From: an uncultured Alphaproteobacteria bacterium | GTDB lineage: Bacteria; Pseudomonadota; Alphaproteobacteria; Rs-D84 | Assembly (NCBI GenBank): GCA_944390225.1 | Contig: CALXPB010000002.1 | Span: forward strand, 63,650 to 127,649 | Reading direction: 5' to 3' | Length of the DNA: 64,000 bases | Shown: positions 2,960 through 14,488 of the stretch, piece after piece | How the letters are laid out: each line of letters opens with the position of its first letter | Position numbering within the stretch: the first letter of the stretch is position 1 | The notes under the pieces: generated by a model | Told to the model about the DNA's origin: nothing | Database searches by the model: none | What the model saw: only the letters and a program-made list of their open reading frames with translations | Made by a program: the position numbers and the translations under genes

Positions 2960-4016
<1,057 letters not shown>

Positions 4017-4018
<2 letters not shown>

Positions 4019-4047
4019 AAAAAGCCGGTATTTACCGGCTTTTTTTT
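4017..4047. terminator. bidirectional intrinsic terminator (mreB / HTH gene)
   Basis: A-run, AGCCGG (4023-4028), loop TATTTA, CCGGCT (4035-4040), T-run. Confidence 0.65.
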
Positions 4048-4261
4048 AATCAAATTTTGAATATCTGTCGTCAAATTTAATTGAATAAAGCGGGGCTGGG
4101 ACCGAAGAAATAAACATAATTAAATCAAAGGTTGTTAATTTCCGCCTGCCAGAAACAATATGCCAATATTCCTGTTCATTAACATTAAAAACATTGCACA
4201 TAAAAACAACGGATAAACCACGTTGCTGTCTAATAGATTCAATTTCCGCGCCAACCCGCAT
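4046..4261 (-). CDS. small XRE-family helix-turn-helix protein (71 aa)
   Basis: I use the internal ATG at 4261, which has AGGAG 7 nt upstream (minus strand). The sequence VGAEIESIRQQRGLSVVFMCNVFNVNEQEYWHIVSGRRKLT fits the HTH_3/XRE pattern. The upstream part of the 94-aa ORF runs into the RNA terminator and is unlikely to be coding. Confidence 0.6.
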   Translation of the reverse strand: MRVGAEIESIRQQRGLSVVFMCNVFNVNEQEYWHIVSGRRKLTTFDLIMFISSVPAPLYSIKFDDRYSKFD

Positions 4262-4284
4262 TTTCAAACTCCTGAATTTCAAAC

Positions 4285-4451
4285 AAAGAAAAACCACCAG
4301 AAAATTCAGGTGGTTGGAGTTTAGTAGCAATTGAACGAATTGCGGCCTTATTCAATATATTCAGCACACTCCAACCTATTGGTTGGATTTTCGCCTTAGT
4401 TTCAGGCGCGTTCAATGGGCTACTAATCCCAGCAACAGAACACCTGTTGCG
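4285..4451 (-). ncRNA. tandem structured sRNA / leader unit 1 (adjacent to the HTH gene)
   Basis: On the minus strand: -35 TTGATA (4486-4481), 17-nt spacer, -10 TATAAT (4463-4458). The 3' end is the hairpin ACCACC/GGTGGT (4314-4293) plus a U-run. Internal helices covary with units 2-5. Ends are approximate. Confidence 0.65.
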
Positions 4452-4520
4452 ATATGTATTATAACCACCCATAAATCATATATCAAATTATTTTTTCTGG
4501 TGTTTTTACTCCTTTACGTT

Positions 4521-4694
4521 AAACAAAAACCACCAGAAAATTCAGGTGGTTGGAGTTTCAACACAATTCAATCAGAAATTGCGGTCTTATTCAATATATT
4601 CAGACCACTCCAACCAATTAGTTGGAGATATGTTTCACCATCACTGGCGCTGATTGAATGGGTGTTGAATCCCAACAACAGAACACCTGTTGCG
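4521..4694 (-). ncRNA. tandem structured sRNA unit 2
   Basis: On the minus strand: TTGATA (4729-4724), N17, TATAAT (4706-4701). Terminator hairpin 4550-4529 followed by UUUUUGUUU. Ends are approximate. Confidence 0.65.
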
Positions 4695-4763
4695 GTATAT
4701 ATTATAACCACCCATAAATCATATATCAAATTATTTTTTCTGGTGTTTTTACTCCTTTACGTT

Positions 4764-4931
4764 AAACAAAAACCACCGGAAAATTCAGGTGGTTGGAGTT
4801 TCAACACAATTGCTAGGAATTGCGGCCTTATTCAATATATTCAGACCACTCCAACCTATTGGTTGGATTTTTACGTCATCGTTGACGCCTAGCAATGGGT
4901 GTTGAATCCCAACAACAGAACACCTGTTGCG
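4764..4931 (-). ncRNA. tandem structured sRNA unit 3
   Basis: On the minus strand: TTGATA (4966-4961), N17, TATAAT (4943-4938). Terminator hairpin 4793-4772 plus a U-run. Confidence 0.65.
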
Positions 4932-5000
4932 ATATGTATTATAACCACCCATAAACCATATATCAAATTATTTTTTCTGGTGTTTTTACTCCTTTACGTT

Positions 5001-5169
5001 AAACAAAAAACCACCGGAAAATTCAGGTGGTTGGAGTTTACAAACAATTGAACGAATTGCGTGCCTTATTCGATATATTCGGCACACTCCAACCTATTGG
5101 TTGGATTTTCGCCTGATAATCAAGCGCGTTCACTAGGTTTGTAAGCCCAGCAACAGAACACCTGTTGCG
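5001..5169 (-). ncRNA. tandem structured sRNA unit 4
   Basis: On the minus strand: TTGATA (5204-5199), N17, TATAAT (5181-5176). Terminator hairpin 5031-5010 plus a U-run. Confidence 0.65.
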
Positions 5170-5238
5170 GTATATATTATAACCACCCATAAACCATATA
5201 TCAAATTATTTTTTCTGGTGTTTTTACTCCTTTACGTT

Positions 5239-5414
5239 AAACAAAAAACCACCGGAAAATACAGGTGGTTGGAGTTTACAAACAATTCAATCAGAAATTG
5301 CGGTCTTATTCAATATATTCAGACTCACTCCAACCGATTAGTTGGAGATATTTTTCGCCATCACCGGCGCTGATTGAATAGGTTTGTAAGCCCAGCAACA
5401 GAACACCTGTTGCG
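5239..5414 (-). ncRNA. tandem structured sRNA unit 5 (distal)
   Basis: On the minus strand: TTGATA (5449-5444), N17, TATAAT (5426-5421). Terminator hairpin 5269-5248 plus a U-run. Confidence 0.65.
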
Positions 5415-5514
5415 ATATGTATTATAACCACCCATAAACCATATATCAAATTATTTTTTATGTACGACTGCATATTTGACAACGGTTTAATTTGTGCTAA
5501 ATTATAAAAAAACT

Positions 5515-6696
5515 ATGGATAATTATATGGATACAGAAGATTACAATATTTTTGATGATGTTATTGATAATGATGATTATTCTAGAATAAATCAAAATTT
5601 CTTTATTGAAGAATCTCTTGATACTAGGGTAAAGTATATCAGTTCTACTATTAACTCAAAAATCCGAACATTATCAGAAGTTTTTCTTGAATGGTTCTTA
5701 TTTGATTCTTCCGAAGAAAAAACTCTGGAATCTTTTATTAAATCTGAAAATATTGATGCTTTTATAACGCCAGAACAGTTTATGGATATAATGTCTAATA
5801 AAGCACATTTGGACGAGCATTTAATACTTTTGGTGCAACAAAAACTCCCGTTTCAAGTACCGCTTAAAAAGATGTATTATTTAAATTCACAAGCAAGAAA
5901 AAACTATACATATTGTATAAAAGTTCCGCCAGAAATTATTCACGATTTAATAAAAAAGGAATTAAATTTAAAAAAAGAAAAAATTAAACAACAGCGAAAA
6001 CAATATTACGAACAAAATCGTGATAAAATTGCGAAACAAAAAAAACAATACTGTGAAATTAATCGTGATAAAATTGCAAAACACAAAAAACAATATTACG
6101 AAGAAAATCGTGATAAAATTTTAGAATACACTAAACAATATTACGAAAAAAATCGTGATAAAATTGCAAAACATCAAAAACAATATTACGAAGAAAATCG
6201 TGATAAAATTTTAGAATATCGTGAACAAAGTCGTGATAAAATTGCAGAATACAAAAAACAATATTACAAAGAAAATCGTGATAAAATTGCAGAATACCAA
6301 AAACAATACCAAGAAAAAAACCGTAATAAAATTGCAGGATACCAGAAACAATACCGTGAAGAAAATCATGATAAAATGTTAAAATACCAACAAATGTATA
6401 AAGAAAGAAAAGAAATGGCCAAATCTGTATGTCCTGCTTTCCTTTTCCTTGATTCTCTTAAAAAAGAAAACATTGTTGTATATTTGACTTTGCATAAAAA
6501 ACATTCTGACATTATAGGAAAAGCCGTTAAATCTTGTAGGGCTCTTCAAAATATGGATTTTACTCTTTGCCCACTTTTTAAATCTGTTGATTCTGAACAA
6601 TATATGAAAGAATCTTGTCCTATGCCTAACGCTTTCGTTCTGCCACAATCTTTCGACATTATCAGAAACTTTGTAACAGTTTTAAAACAACGATAA
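5515..6696 (+). CDS. hypothetical protein with a central array of 15-aa KQYYEENRDKIxEYx repeats and a Cys-containing C-terminus
   Basis: Long ORF. The ORF-track start at 5494 is GTG; the first ATG is at 5515. A TTGACA-type promoter lies at about 5475. I recognise no family. Confidence 0.55.
   Translation: MDNYMDTEDYNIFDDVIDNDDYSRINQNFFIEESLDTRVKYISSTINSKIRTLSEVFLEWFLFDSSEEKTLESFIKSENIDAFITPEQFMDIMSNKAHLDEHLILLVQQKLPFQVPLKKMYYLNSQARKNYTYCIKVPPEIIHDLIKKELNLKKEKIKQQRKQYYEQNRDKIAKQKKQYCEINRDKIAKHKKQYYEENRDKILEYTKQYYEKNRDKIAKHQKQYYEENRDKILEYREQSRDKIAEYKKQYYKENRDKIAEYQKQYQEKNRNKIAGYQKQYREENHDKMLKYQQMYKERKEMAKSVCPAFLFLDSLKKENIVVYLTLHKKHSDIIGKAVKSCRALQNMDFTLCPLFKSVDSEQYMKESCPMPNAFVLPQSFDIIRNFVTVLKQR
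5995..6405 (+). repeat. about 9 tandem 45-bp coding repeats
   Basis: Units of the form caatattacgaagaaaatcgtgataaaatt... recur every 45 bp. One unit is shortened (EQSRDKIAEYK). Confidence 0.9.
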
Positions 6697-6848: not shown

Positions 6849-6925
6849 GGGTGGTTAGCTCAGTTGGTTAGAGCGTTACGTTGACATCGTAAAGGTCGTT
6901 GGTTCGAGTCCAATACCACCCACCA
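6849..6925 (+). tRNA. tRNA-Val (anticodon GAC)
   Basis: Cloverleaf: acceptor GGGTGGT/ACCACCC, anticodon arm TTACG-TTGACAT-CGTAA, T-loop GGTTCGAGTCC, encoded CCA. Confidence 0.9.
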
Positions 6926-13048: not shown

Positions 13049-13074
13049 AAAAAAGCCACAAAAGTGGCTTTTTT
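13049..13074. terminator. bidirectional terminator (tRNA-Thr / 112-aa gene)
   Basis: A-run, GCCAC (13055-13059), loop AAAA, GTGGC (13064-13068), T-run. Confidence 0.6.
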
Positions 13075-13411
13075 AACGCTGTTTTGCATTCATTTCTTTT
13101 AAACGTTTTTCTAAATGCCCTAACAGTTTTTCAGTATGAACATTTATGGAAAATAAAAACTCTTTGGCTGTTTCAGATAACGCATCTACTTCATTAAAAT
13201 TTATTTTCAATACTGGAAAAGAGTTTAACGAACTTTGATACTTTTGCATTTTTATACCATATTTTGATAATATATACTGACAAACATTTGTATAATCTTC
13301 CCTTAACGGTATAAAATAAATCACTCTGAAACCGTTTCTATCTGTTGCAGAAGTTGTTTCTTTTATTAATCTTTCAAGTAATTTTAAATCTAAATTTTTT
13401 TCTGATAACAT
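13073..13411 (-). CDS. hypothetical protein, one copy of a ~100-aa paralogous domain
   Basis: The domain KLLERLI...YILSKYGIKMQ...VLKI...LS...KEFLFS is shared with both halves of the 220-aa neighbour. Confidence 0.55.
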   Translation of the reverse strand: MLSEKNLDLKLLERLIKETTSATDRNGFRVIYFIPLREDYTNVCQYILSKYGIKMQKYQSSLNSFPVLKINFNEVDALSETAKEFLFSINVHTEKLLGHLEKRLKEMNAKQR

Positions 13412-13488
13412 TAATACCTCGTTTTTTATTTATATTTAGGGTATACCATGAATTCTTTTATAAAAAGAAACGTATGCAGCCCTATAAC

Positions 13489-13836
13489 TTATTTAAATTT
13501 CTCGTTTGATAGTTTCTTTATTCTTTGCACCATAACTTTCATTAAAAAAGCATATTCAATATTAGACATTTTATATCTGTTAAATTTATCACTACTAACT
13601 GTATAAACGATTAATTCTTTTGAAACATTACGAATATAAAATTTCATAGTATCAAAAAAATGTATCTCATACCCTGCAATATCACCTGTCGCCTGAATCC
13701 ACGGTTTTATATTGTTAGTTGCTTTTATACATTCGGCAACTTCTTTAACATCCAAAAACTCAAACTTTTTTTTCTTTTTTACTTTTTTTATTCGTACTAA
13801 ATTCATCTTTAAACCTTTTAAAAATTTATCTGCCAT
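13489..13836 (-). CDS. hypothetical small basic protein
   Basis: An ORF in an operon-like arrangement that overlaps the upstream gene by 11 nt. An alternative ATG at 13806 has an AAAGG SD. It is loosely similar in layout to the 107-aa protein at 14594-14917. Confidence 0.45.
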   Translation of the reverse strand: MADKFLKGLKMNLVRIKKVKKKKKFEFLDVKEVAECIKATNNIKPWIQATGDIAGYEIHFFDTMKFYIRNVSKELIVYTVSSDKFNRYKMSNIEYAFLMKVMVQRIKKLSNEKFK

Positions 13837-14488
13837 TAGAAATCATTTCTAAAAATACATCTTTAAAATACTTTTTGATAACTTCTGTATCCTTTTTAAC
13901 AGAAAATAATAATTTTCTGGCATCTTTATTTAAATATTCTATTTCAGAATCACCAGCTTTCAATGCCAATTTGTTTTCAAAAACGCATTCTTTTAATTCA
14001 ATTCCGAACTTTCTAAAAATATGTTTATATATCGGTATAAAAAAATCATCCGTAAGAATATAATAACAAATCTTTTCACCCTTCGGATTTATAACATCCT
14101 TGGTTTCTTTTATAGTATCTATAAAAAAACCCTGCAAAAATTTATAATCTTCTTTTGTAAAATTATTTTGATTTAAAACGATCGATCTCACAAAATTTTC
14201 ATCAAAATCTGTTAAATTGTTGCCGACAGAAAAAAGAAACTTCTTTTCTTTCGGAGATAAAGAAACTATATCAGAATACGATATTTTTAATACATATTTA
14301 TCTGATCCAATATTAGCCTCTTGCATTTTTATACCGTGCTTATCAAAAATATATTTAGCCATATTTAAAATAGGTTTGTTATCATAAAATTGGCAATACG
14401 AACAAATACCTTTTTCAGCAACTATGTCTTCAGTTGAGATAATCAAAAAATTTAACAATTTTTTATCTAAAACATATGTATTTATCAT
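13826..14488 (-). CDS. hypothetical protein, two tandem copies of the paralogous ~100-aa domain
   Basis: The two halves align with each other and with the 112-aa protein: KYIFDKHGIKMQ...VLKI...LSPKEKKFLFS, and KHIFRKFGIELK...ALKA...LNKDARKLLFS. Confidence 0.55.
   Translation of the reverse strand: MINTYVLDKKLLNFLIISTEDIVAEKGICSYCQFYDNKPILNMAKYIFDKHGIKMQEANIGSDKYVLKISYSDIVSLSPKEKKFLFSVGNNLTDFDENFVRSIVLNQNNFTKEDYKFLQGFFIDTIKETKDVINPKGEKICYYILTDDFFIPIYKHIFRKFGIELKECVFENKLALKAGDSEIEYLNKDARKLLFSVKKDTEVIKKYFKDVFLEMISNGR

Follow-up and report, generated by a model that had tools for sequence, protein, structure and literature searches.

The question raised by this locus is whether five similar transcription units, placed head to tail, are independent small RNA (sRNA) genes or serve the gene that lies behind them. 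The array is located on the minus strand of a 64,000-nucleotide stretch of DNA (the window; contig CALXPB010000002.1, positions 63,650 to 127,649) from an uncultured Alphaproteobacteria bacterium. An initial annotation, made from the letters alone, had described the units as autonomous sRNA genes whose helices change sequence between units while staying complementary. The follow-up presented here identifies the RNA as a real, conserved structured family, the fold of which is backed by covariation. As to its function, about an even chance is given to the reading that each unit is a transcription-attenuation leader, presumably amplified in this genus upstream of the gene of a tiny Xre-like regulator.

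Tandem Repeats Finder recognises the locus as one array (4285-5459; period 238, 4.9 copies, 85% matches, score 1600), in which five units of 237-245 bp each follow one another head to tail on the minus strand of window positions 4289-5449. In the direction of transcription, unit 5 measures 245 bp, unit 4 238 bp, unit 3 237 bp and unit 2 243 bp, and unit 1 extends to the downstream open reading frame (ORF). Each unit is composed of a TTGATA-N17-TATAAT element, a gap of ~7 nt, a 5' hairpin (P1), a long body and a terminator, and the predicted transcript is ~165-175 nt long. The five promoter-like sites, each agreeing with the consensus at 11 of 12 positions, are in phase with the repeat, which reproduces the arrangement proposed in the initial annotation. 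The distance between the -10 element and P1 is 5-9 nt in the window units and likewise in most relatives. P1 itself (GCAACAGGTGTTCTGTTG, read as RNA GCAACAG-GUGUU-CUGUUGC) occurs exactly 5 times in the window, with 0.06 occurrences expected by chance. The terminator, AACCACC-loop-GGTGGTT followed by 5-6 T, folds at -9.3 to -10.5 kcal/mol; read on the plus strand, the hairpin runs into TTGGAG instead of a T run, in agreement with the earlier claim that it can work on the minus strand only. A simple consensus scanner did not list the unit terminators because of an internal mismatch in the stem and the long loop; their support comes from folding and from compensatory changes seen in relatives. 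The spacer to the next -35 element is 38 nt long and identical in units 5-2. Each of the five transcripts folds alone to a common shape with an energy of -63 to -68 kcal/mol.

Relatives of these units were collected from genomes and metagenomes. The exact 71-aa protein encoded behind the array is found in 95 collection blocks of metagenome contigs, always behind an array, and this look-up provided ten same-species loci (L001-L010) with the same neighbours as in the window. A pattern scan through one genome per species returned 14 stretches with 12 true matches, all in metagenome-assembled genomes (MAGs) of uncultured Alphaproteobacteria or a 'proteobacterium' from human or animal gut, goat reticulum and rumen, and a pattern scan of metagenomes added 17 further true loci. 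A covariance model built from 41 sequences detects 58 copies (83-176 bits) in the loci collected, which belong to MAGs of uncultured gut and rumen Alphaproteobacteria, and matches nothing but the five units in the 64-kb window.

The unconstrained minimum free energy (MFE) fold of 40 of the 41 diverse sequences corresponds to a single architecture; in L012, P3 and P5 were recovered only with constraints on the P5 loop. P1 is a hairpin with the invariant top CAG-GNGUU-CUG. It is followed by a short extension (P2ext, UGGG paired with UCCA), an 8-bp outer helix (P2), a small asymmetric internal loop with CC or CU opposite U, and an inner helix (P2b) of 6-11 bp. Together, P2 and P2b form a closing helix of ~20 bp that encloses a junction from which P3, P4 and P5 emerge. 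Of these, P3 is variable and missing in L035:8596-8759, P4 (UCCAAC-loop-GGUUGGA) is invariant, and P5 combines a variable stem with the conserved loop GAAUAUAUUGAAUAA. On the 3' side of P5, GCAAUU precedes the return strands of P2b and P2, after which comes a distal nonamer, ACUCCAACC, that overlaps the terminator. The P1 loop UGUUC and the P5 loop GAAUA, both invariant, could form a kissing pair. Two relatives (L014:444-630 and L032:12570-12751) have an additional hairpin halfway along the P5 loop, which thereby becomes an internal loop with GAAUAAU opposite AGAAUAA; this suggests that the two GAAUA elements are a defined motif.

Several comparisons show that these helices are maintained by compensatory change. 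In the covariance-model alignment, 98.6% of cells are paired as compared to 84.5% in shuffles and 30-53% in slid controls, changes on both sides are seen in 16 of 30 pairs, and the covariation score is 0.412 against 0.137, a level reached in 0 of 500 shuffles. This count covers P1, six P2 pairs, three P3 pairs, P4 and the terminator. Because the variable inner helix was out of register in the MAFFT alignment and in the first model, P2b, P3 and P5 were extracted by an anchor-based script and complemented by an alignment-free test. The anchor-based count gives 23 distinct arm pairs for P2 with 96.7% canonical pairing (59% with permuted 3' arms), 25 for P2b with 100% (43%), 26 for P3 with 100% (63%), 19 for P5 with 94.7% (51%) and 20 for P1 with 94% (75%). 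In the alignment-free test, the 30 nt after P1 were paired with the 32 nt before the distal motif of the same or of a foreign sequence; own arms pair at a mean of -23.4 kcal/mol, foreign arms at -10.0 kcal/mol, and in 33 of 36 cases no foreign 3' arm pairs better than the sequence's own. The terminator AACCACC..GGUGGUU with its U run is present in all 58 copies (-8 to -12 kcal/mol) and carries compensatory changes at three stem pairs. The ~170-nt structured minus-strand RNA of the initial annotation, and the covariation it expected among homologues, are thereby borne out.

The family is missing from Rfam 15, and no paper describing it was found. With the 4227 Rfam 15 models and the gathering threshold of each family as criterion, only tRNAs were detected in the window, and only tRNA and rRNA in thirteen loci with divergent members, so that the initial annotation was right to recognise no Rfam family. 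Even at E-values up to 10, the best match inside a unit (region 4000-5700) was SgrS with 21.9 bits against a threshold of 37, and the Rfam C4 family matched neither the array region nor the loci of the thirteen relatives. A full-text literature search for the invariant motifs returned only unrelated eukaryotic or primer matches. ARAGORN and Rfam called no tRNA or tmRNA in the array, which had likewise been anticipated. A derivation from tRNA-Val, suggested by the strings GGUGGUU/ACCACC and GUUGG/CCAAC common to both, was rejected (best local alignment score 18 compared to 15.6 +/- 2.1, maximum 25, for shuffled tRNA). The same applies to a CRISPR array, in view of the 238-bp repeat with internal promoters, where a CRISPR would have short identical repeats and unique spacers, and of the neighbours mreB, an orphan ORF, tRNA-Val and metG, where cas genes would be expected.

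Two observations that go beyond the initial annotation, an alternative helix that could act as antiterminator and the link to a downstream gene, bear on the function of the RNA. The 3' arm of P4, GGUUGGAGU (GGUUGGA plus 2 nt), is complementary at 9 of 9 positions to the nine nucleotides of the distal motif, whose AACC end coincides with the first four bases of the terminator stem (columns 192-195 in both helices). All nine pairs of this alternative helix are kept in 53 distinct sequences (477 of 477 cells; 0 of 500 shuffles as high), and both variable pairs change in a compensatory manner, UA to GC in 8 sequences and GC to AU or UA in 2, with one UG. If P4 were extended locally at these two positions, pairing would be canonical in only 56% of cases, and the P4 arm therefore tracks its distal partner better than its local one. 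The calculated energies are ~-10.4 kcal/mol for the P4 hairpin, ~-10.4 for the terminator and ~-14 for the alternative duplex.

The second observation concerns the position of the RNA. In 24 loci (~17 distinct contexts), an ORF with a ribosome-binding site starts on the same strand 19-35 nt past the U run, and such a co-oriented gene was found in every context checked. This gap leaves no room for a promoter. In the window, the gene in question is a 71-aa ORF (4046-4261, minus strand) with a weak Xre-type helix-turn-helix (HTH), the AGGAG ribosome-binding site and ATG of which are located 26 nt past the T run of unit 1. Since minus-strand positions 4262-4330 contain no other promoter-like site, the ORF can, as far as the sequence tells, be transcribed only via read-through of the array. 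Its Pfam match to HTH_31 (E=0.032) is below the cut-off, and a protein search for homologues matched only the protein itself. An hhalign comparison with 110-aa HTH_3 proteins encoded behind related RNAs gave the correct register and E=0.0035 at low probability. Within the genus of the window, the downstream proteins are 63-72 aa long and have a degenerate Xre-type helix-turn-helix. Other copies precede the 110-aa HTH_3 proteins (E=5.6e-14), a 51-63-aa orphan family unrelated to the 63-72-aa group, a 159-aa orphan, a 641-aa trypsin-like secreted protein, a protein with a pilin-like N-terminus or a 446-aa secreted cysteine-rich protein. The downstream ORFs thus belong to mutually unrelated families, and most members of the RNA family precede a very small orphan protein. 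A single copy is the rule across the family, and the array is a lineage-specific amplification. The attribute 'autonomous' in the initial annotation could not be maintained, because the RNA occurs throughout the family as a 5' leader, alternative helix and terminator overlap, and single copies prevail.

Taken together, the downstream gene and the alternative helix point to a three-part layout in which P4 would serve as anti-antiterminator, the alternative helix as antiterminator and the AACCACC hairpin as terminator. In the proposed switch, the folded junction would let P4 hold GGUUGGAGU, the terminator would form and an abundant ~170-nt RNA would be released, which is the expected default judged by energy. 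A signal (ligand, protein or RNA) that opens P4 or prevents its formation would free GGUUGGAGU to pair with ACUCCAACC, and this pairing would take away four of the seven terminator base pairs. At the weakened terminator, RNA polymerase would continue into the unit that follows and eventually reach the ORF. Every unit of an array would add one promoter, and output would be proportional to r + r^2 + ... + r^n, where r denotes the read-through efficiency, and would rise steeply with it. It is further conceivable that terminated RNAs titrate the signal and that the array provides the sensor RNA in many copies. A trans role of the short, terminated transcripts is possible as well.

Several points weigh against attenuation. 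Nested folds that contain the alternative helix lose P2 and are 11-20 kcal/mol worse, and the terminator form dominates. Read-through would therefore need either a pseudoknot with an intact P2 or a factor by which P4 is opened or blocked. Variation in the alternative helix is confined to two positions, so that few evolutionary events stand behind its support, and UGGG, located upstream of P2, is another possible partner of the distal sequence. As its switch, the RNA would use an internal hairpin made ~60 nt before its competitor, which is unusual for riboswitches, and riboswitches are not known to come with an own promoter per attenuator, a feature that fits sRNA genes equally well. The downstream genes (small HTH, orphan and secreted proteins) have no metabolic theme and do not indicate a metabolite. 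Finally, promoters, terminators and switch are all predictions.

The amplified state is best described by the variation between units. In the promoter and P1 region the window units diverge by 4.8%, whereas the outer arms diverge by 35% overall, and those of different alleles differ at 3-5 of 8 positions. Three outer alleles occur in the window, AGTAGC (A) in unit 1, CAACAC (B) in units 2 and 3 and ACAAAC (C) in units 4 and 5. The plus-strand coordinates given before for the outer helix of unit 1 are exact (TTAGTAGC at 4321-4328 and GCTACTAA at 4419-4426), and the third stem does alternate between GGTCT/AGACC and GTGCC/GGCAC. The inner helix alleles were also found as listed, except that the pair in unit 4 extends over only 6 bp (TGAACG/CGTTCA). 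With this pair designated x', the units form the mosaic A-x, B-y, B-z, C-x', C-y, which confirms the initial annotation.

Among strains of this species with a 100% identical ORF, the arrays comprise 2, 4 or 5 units, and the unit order differs. With the inner modules numbered i1-i6, the window and L007 have C-i1, C-i2, B-i3, B-i1, A-i4. Two units are found in L001 and L006 (C-i2, B-i3) and in L010 (B-i1, A-i1), and four units in L002 (C-i1, A-i5, B-i3, A-i1), L003 and L005 (A-i4, C-i1, B-i3, A-i1), L009 (A-i4, C-i1, B-i6, A-i1), L004 (C-i1, C-i2, B-i1, A-i1) and L008 (A-i4, B-i3, C-i2, A-i1). The combination of outer and inner helix is never repeated within any array. These alleles recur in sister species, together with a fourth outer allele and additional inner alleles. 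Helix modules are thus exchanged between units with pairing kept, as the initial annotation had deduced from the mosaic. One unit of a sister species, L022:5078-5244 (minus strand), combines outer arms of different alleles (5' AGTAGC, 3' TTTGTAA) that remain unpaired, and appears to be a recombinant, possibly defective copy. An independent three-unit array is present in another lineage beside metG and a tRNA (L035:8596-9217 and L038:4621-5242). It has a different promoter and terminator loop, identical flanks and three different P2/P2b pairs, and its third unit has no hairpin P3.

Spacers are identical within a genome and different between species, whereas helix alleles are common across species, and flanks therefore evolve in concert and helices do not. 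The variable helices could be regarded as old 'identities' of paralogues, while promoters, spacers and loops would be homogenised within each genome by concerted evolution. A structural barrier might account for the difference. Conversion of one arm breaks the helix and helix arms would for this reason resist piecemeal conversion; mixed units would be purged and the flanks would be free to homogenise. Selection may also favour helices that are not identical, as these would keep neighbouring units from mispairing in read-through RNA.

The coordinates of the individual elements, all on the minus strand, are as follows. Unit 5 has its promoter at 5421-5449 (11/12 match to the consensus) and an RNA of type C-y at 5243-5414, with the start inferred ~7 nt after the -10 element; it scores 172.5 bits in cmsearch and its MFE fold (-63.0 kcal/mol) has the family architecture. 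P1 spans 5395-5413, the P2 arm UUACAAAC (5382-5389) pairs with GUUUGUAA (5276-5283), and the P2b arm ATTCAATCAG (5370-5379) with 5285-5294. P4, the proposed anti-antiterminator, is located at 5329-5346 with the UCCAAC-loop-GGUUGGA sequence that is invariant in the 53 distinct sequences. The distal motif at 5267-5275, to which the P4 3' arm would pair in the alternative helix, runs into the terminator AACCACC..GGUGGUU + U6 (5243-5270). The other four units have promoters with the same 11/12 match and RNAs supported by cmsearch and by fold. Unit 4 (promoter 5176-5204; type C-x' RNA 5005-5169, 157.6 bits) has P1 at 5150-5168, P2 arms at 5137-5144 and 5038-5045, P4 at 5088-5105, the distal motif at 5029-5037 and the terminator at 5005-5032. 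In unit 3 (promoter 4938-4966; type B-z RNA 4768-4931, 170.7 bits), the corresponding positions are P1 4912-4930, P2 4899-4906 and 4800-4807, P4 4850-4867, distal motif 4791-4799 and terminator 4768-4794. For unit 2 (promoter 4701-4729; type B-y RNA 4525-4694, 169.8 bits) they are P1 4675-4693, P2 4662-4669 and 4557-4564, P4 4609-4626, distal motif 4548-4556 and terminator 4525-4551. Unit 1 (promoter 4458-4486; type A-x RNA 4289-4451, 160.5 bits) comprises P1 at 4432-4450, P2 arms at 4419-4426 and 4321-4328, P4 at 4370-4387, the distal motif at 4312-4320 and the terminator at 4289-4315.

Among the other explanations, it is possible, though on the doubtful side, that the units are autonomous genes of trans-acting sRNAs, the ~170-nt RNA acting on mRNAs or binding a protein. 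The downstream gene would then merely use leakage of the terminator, and the helices would be scaffolds or provide specificity of the paralogues. The predicted strong promoter and terminator in every unit, which should yield a discrete small RNA, would fit such a role, and so would the by far highest stability of the terminated form and a copy number that varies like a dosage trait. The invariant P1 loop GNGUU, the P5 loop GAAUAUAUUGAAUAA and the distal motif ACUCCAACC, which contains an anti-Shine-Dalgarno-like CUCC, could bind protein or targets. However, this nonamer is paired in the predicted fold, a co-oriented gene follows 19-35 nt downstream in all contexts and the alternative helix overlaps the terminator. 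When the other 63 kb of the window were searched for sequences that the ten helix arms could target in trans (up to 3 mismatches; exact 12-mers), only chance-level matches appeared and no significant complementary target. The two roles are not exclusive, since leader-derived RNAs can also act in trans. Less probable still is the idea that the variable 18-20-bp helices are specificity determinants kept diverse by selection, which would make the array a repertoire of orthogonal RNA 'addresses', read for instance by double-strand-specific proteins, as RNase III products or in a heteroimmunity-like RNA-RNA recognition as in phage P4 CI and P1 c4. This would agree with a divergence concentrated in the helices (35% versus at most 5% in the flanks), with the persistence of the same alleles across species, with the lack of any array with a duplicate combination of outer and inner helix, and with a unit order shuffled between strains, a pattern also seen in the second lineage. 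Yet the genus has a small, stable set of alleles (~4 outer, 5 inner) that is not strain-specific, a helix of -23 kcal/mol keeps both arms sequestered, and no matches were found in viral contigs or the window. Selection against half-converted helices combined with concerted flanks would yield the same pattern with no role in specificity.

The layout of RNA repeats, terminator and protein gene resembles toxI-toxN, and a very small orphan protein is encoded behind most members. RNA and protein might accordingly be a functional pair, either a ribonucleoprotein or a ToxIN-like type III module of RNA antitoxin and protein toxin, with the RNA dosage raised by the repeats. This is considered very improbable, because at least three unrelated families, and large secreted proteins besides, are represented among the downstream proteins, the units are 240 bp long with their own promoters rather than 36-nt repeats cut by a toxin, the window ORF has a weak helix-turn-helix and is not a nuclease, and single-copy RNAs are the rule. 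A type III toxin-antitoxin system was rejected as a candidate in view of the 237-245-bp units, each with a promoter, and the weak HTH signal of the 71-aa ORF. Hardly any credit can be given to a feature at the DNA or coding level, such as attC-like recombination sites, iterons or the plus-strand 169-aa ORF that is open at 4383-4892. The motifs of the ATCCAAC and GTTGGAT type superficially fit the attC core RYYYAAC/GTTRRRY, but compensatory changes keep pairing within the strand over five helices, and promoters and T runs are strand-specific. In the array, the attC-like motif pair is a tight 18-nt hairpin, whereas attC sites are imperfect palindromes of 57-141 nt between ORF cassettes. An integron was rejected, with no integrase gene adjoining the array or lying within 10 kb on either side and no cassettes between the units. 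The 169-aa ORF (4383-4892), which the initial annotation had named as a possible objection, is an artefact; it is open only as the lengths of units 2 and 3 are divisible by three, its frame is broken by units 4 and 5 (238 and 245 bp) and by loop indels, and no plus-strand gene was called inside the array in the ten same-species assemblies.

The window has a G+C content of 36%, and accC, accB, yidD, rnpA, mreB, tRNA-Val, metG, queH, fabD, fabG and mnmG were found in it; the neighbours of the array are mreB, an orphan ORF, tRNA-Val and metG. A phage or mobile origin was rejected, as the family pattern and one helix-arm pattern had no match in 2.9 million viral contigs. The orphan ORF, which is divergent from the array (5494-6696, plus strand; 400 aa, no Pfam match), contains ~8.7 tandem copies of a 45-nt (15-aa) repeat KQYYEENRDKIAEY at 5997-6377, and its length varies between 378 and 501 aa in the gene calls of same-species strains. 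In the sister species (L013, L016, L019, L022, L024), the array adjoins a tRNA-Val on the opposite strand (the equivalent in the window is near 6849-6925), and 1-2 partial tRNA-Val copies comprising the first ~55 nt lie between the intact tRNA and the first unit, which suggests a past rearrangement or integration at the tRNA. In the species of the window, the repeat-protein gene is inserted where the sister species have the partial tRNA copies. Identical RNA copies are present in L025:5858-6250, L037:3300-3545 and L044, and the DNA diverges right after ...AACCCAGCGG past the terminator. The ORF behind the RNA in L037 and L044 is serine recombinase-like by sequence motifs alone, and L025 has an ORF with the Fic motif HPFDDGNGR further downstream; the site just behind the leader looks like an insertion hot spot. 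A GC-rich hairpin at 4011-4052 (AAAAAGCCGGTA..TACCGGCTTTTTT) between A and T runs is the predicted bidirectional terminator for mreB (plus strand) and the 71-aa ORF (minus strand); its several weak, sub-threshold Rfam sRNA matches reflect resemblance to terminators only. Elsewhere in the window, three adjacent paralogous orphan ORFs of 112, 115 and 220 aa (13073-14488, minus strand) have an N-terminal sequence in common, and the 220-aa ORF contains an apparent internal duplication of the common module.

Terminator-coupled structured leaders and sRNA arrays are known kinds of element, and a comparison with them can define what is different here. Attenuators such as riboswitches, the PyrR-binding pyr leader and the T-box likewise have a structured domain right after the promoter, a hairpin that sequesters the antiterminator strand, an antiterminator that overlaps the terminator and a promoterless gene behind it. 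The array RNA has no known aptamer, T-box or Rfam match, would switch via an internal hairpin of a four-way junction instead of the closing helix, has a promoter per unit, and would regulate genes for tiny HTH, orphan or secreted proteins. Tandem riboswitches (glycine aptamers, TPP, T-box) also place serial units of sensor and terminator before one gene, and such an arrangement can sharpen the response. Known cases consist of 2-3 units with one promoter and are fixed within a species, whereas the arrays described here have 2-5 units with own promoters, differing helices and a number and order that vary between strains. Head-to-tail promoter/terminator units with variable copy number are familiar from sRNA arrays (NsiR1 in Anabaena, LhrC1-4 in Listeria, PrrF1/2 in Pseudomonas). 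Those RNAs are 60-110 nt long, with simple hairpins and a common single-stranded seed; the RNA of the array is ~170 nt long, has a junction fold with variable helices in place of a seed and is always the leader of a gene. ToxI shares tandem RNA repeats, a terminator and a protein gene on the same strand, but its 36-nt repeats, single promoter, processing by the ToxN nuclease and 170-aa toxin are all missing here. The CI RNA of phage P4 and the c4 RNA of phages P1 and P7 are leader-derived small RNAs that act by premature termination or target masking, and their specificity resides in complementary segments that change in a compensatory manner between related elements. These segments act between molecules or at distant leader sites of a phage operon, in contrast to the intramolecular helix of the present RNA, which belongs to a chromosomal locus free of phage genes and has no match in viral contigs.

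What is unusual about the family is a promoter for each attenuator, a copy number and order that vary between strains and mutually different, co-adapted helices in every array. A more far-reaching version, which is unlikely at present, would have the family as a new class of signal-responsive attenuators (orphan riboswitch or factor-binding leader) for small Xre-type regulators and secreted proteins of uncultured gut and rumen Alphaproteobacteria, whose 18-20-bp helices are kept orthogonal by selection within arrays, so that arrays act as multi-promoter/terminator analogue amplifier, decoy bank or set of double-stranded RNA 'addresses'. In any case, the analysis adds a well-supported structured RNA family for gut and rumen Alphaproteobacteria that are known only from metagenomes. 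If a ligand or factor is sensed, this would be a new regulatory class that controls tiny regulators and secreted proteins. The arrays are also a natural experiment in RNA evolution, with concerted flanks and distinct, co-adapted helix alleles that are reshuffled between strains. This pattern bears on the interplay of compensatory evolution with gene conversion and on the avoidance of misfolding in tandem RNA modules, and it might provide a design rule for synthetic constructs with multiple riboswitches.

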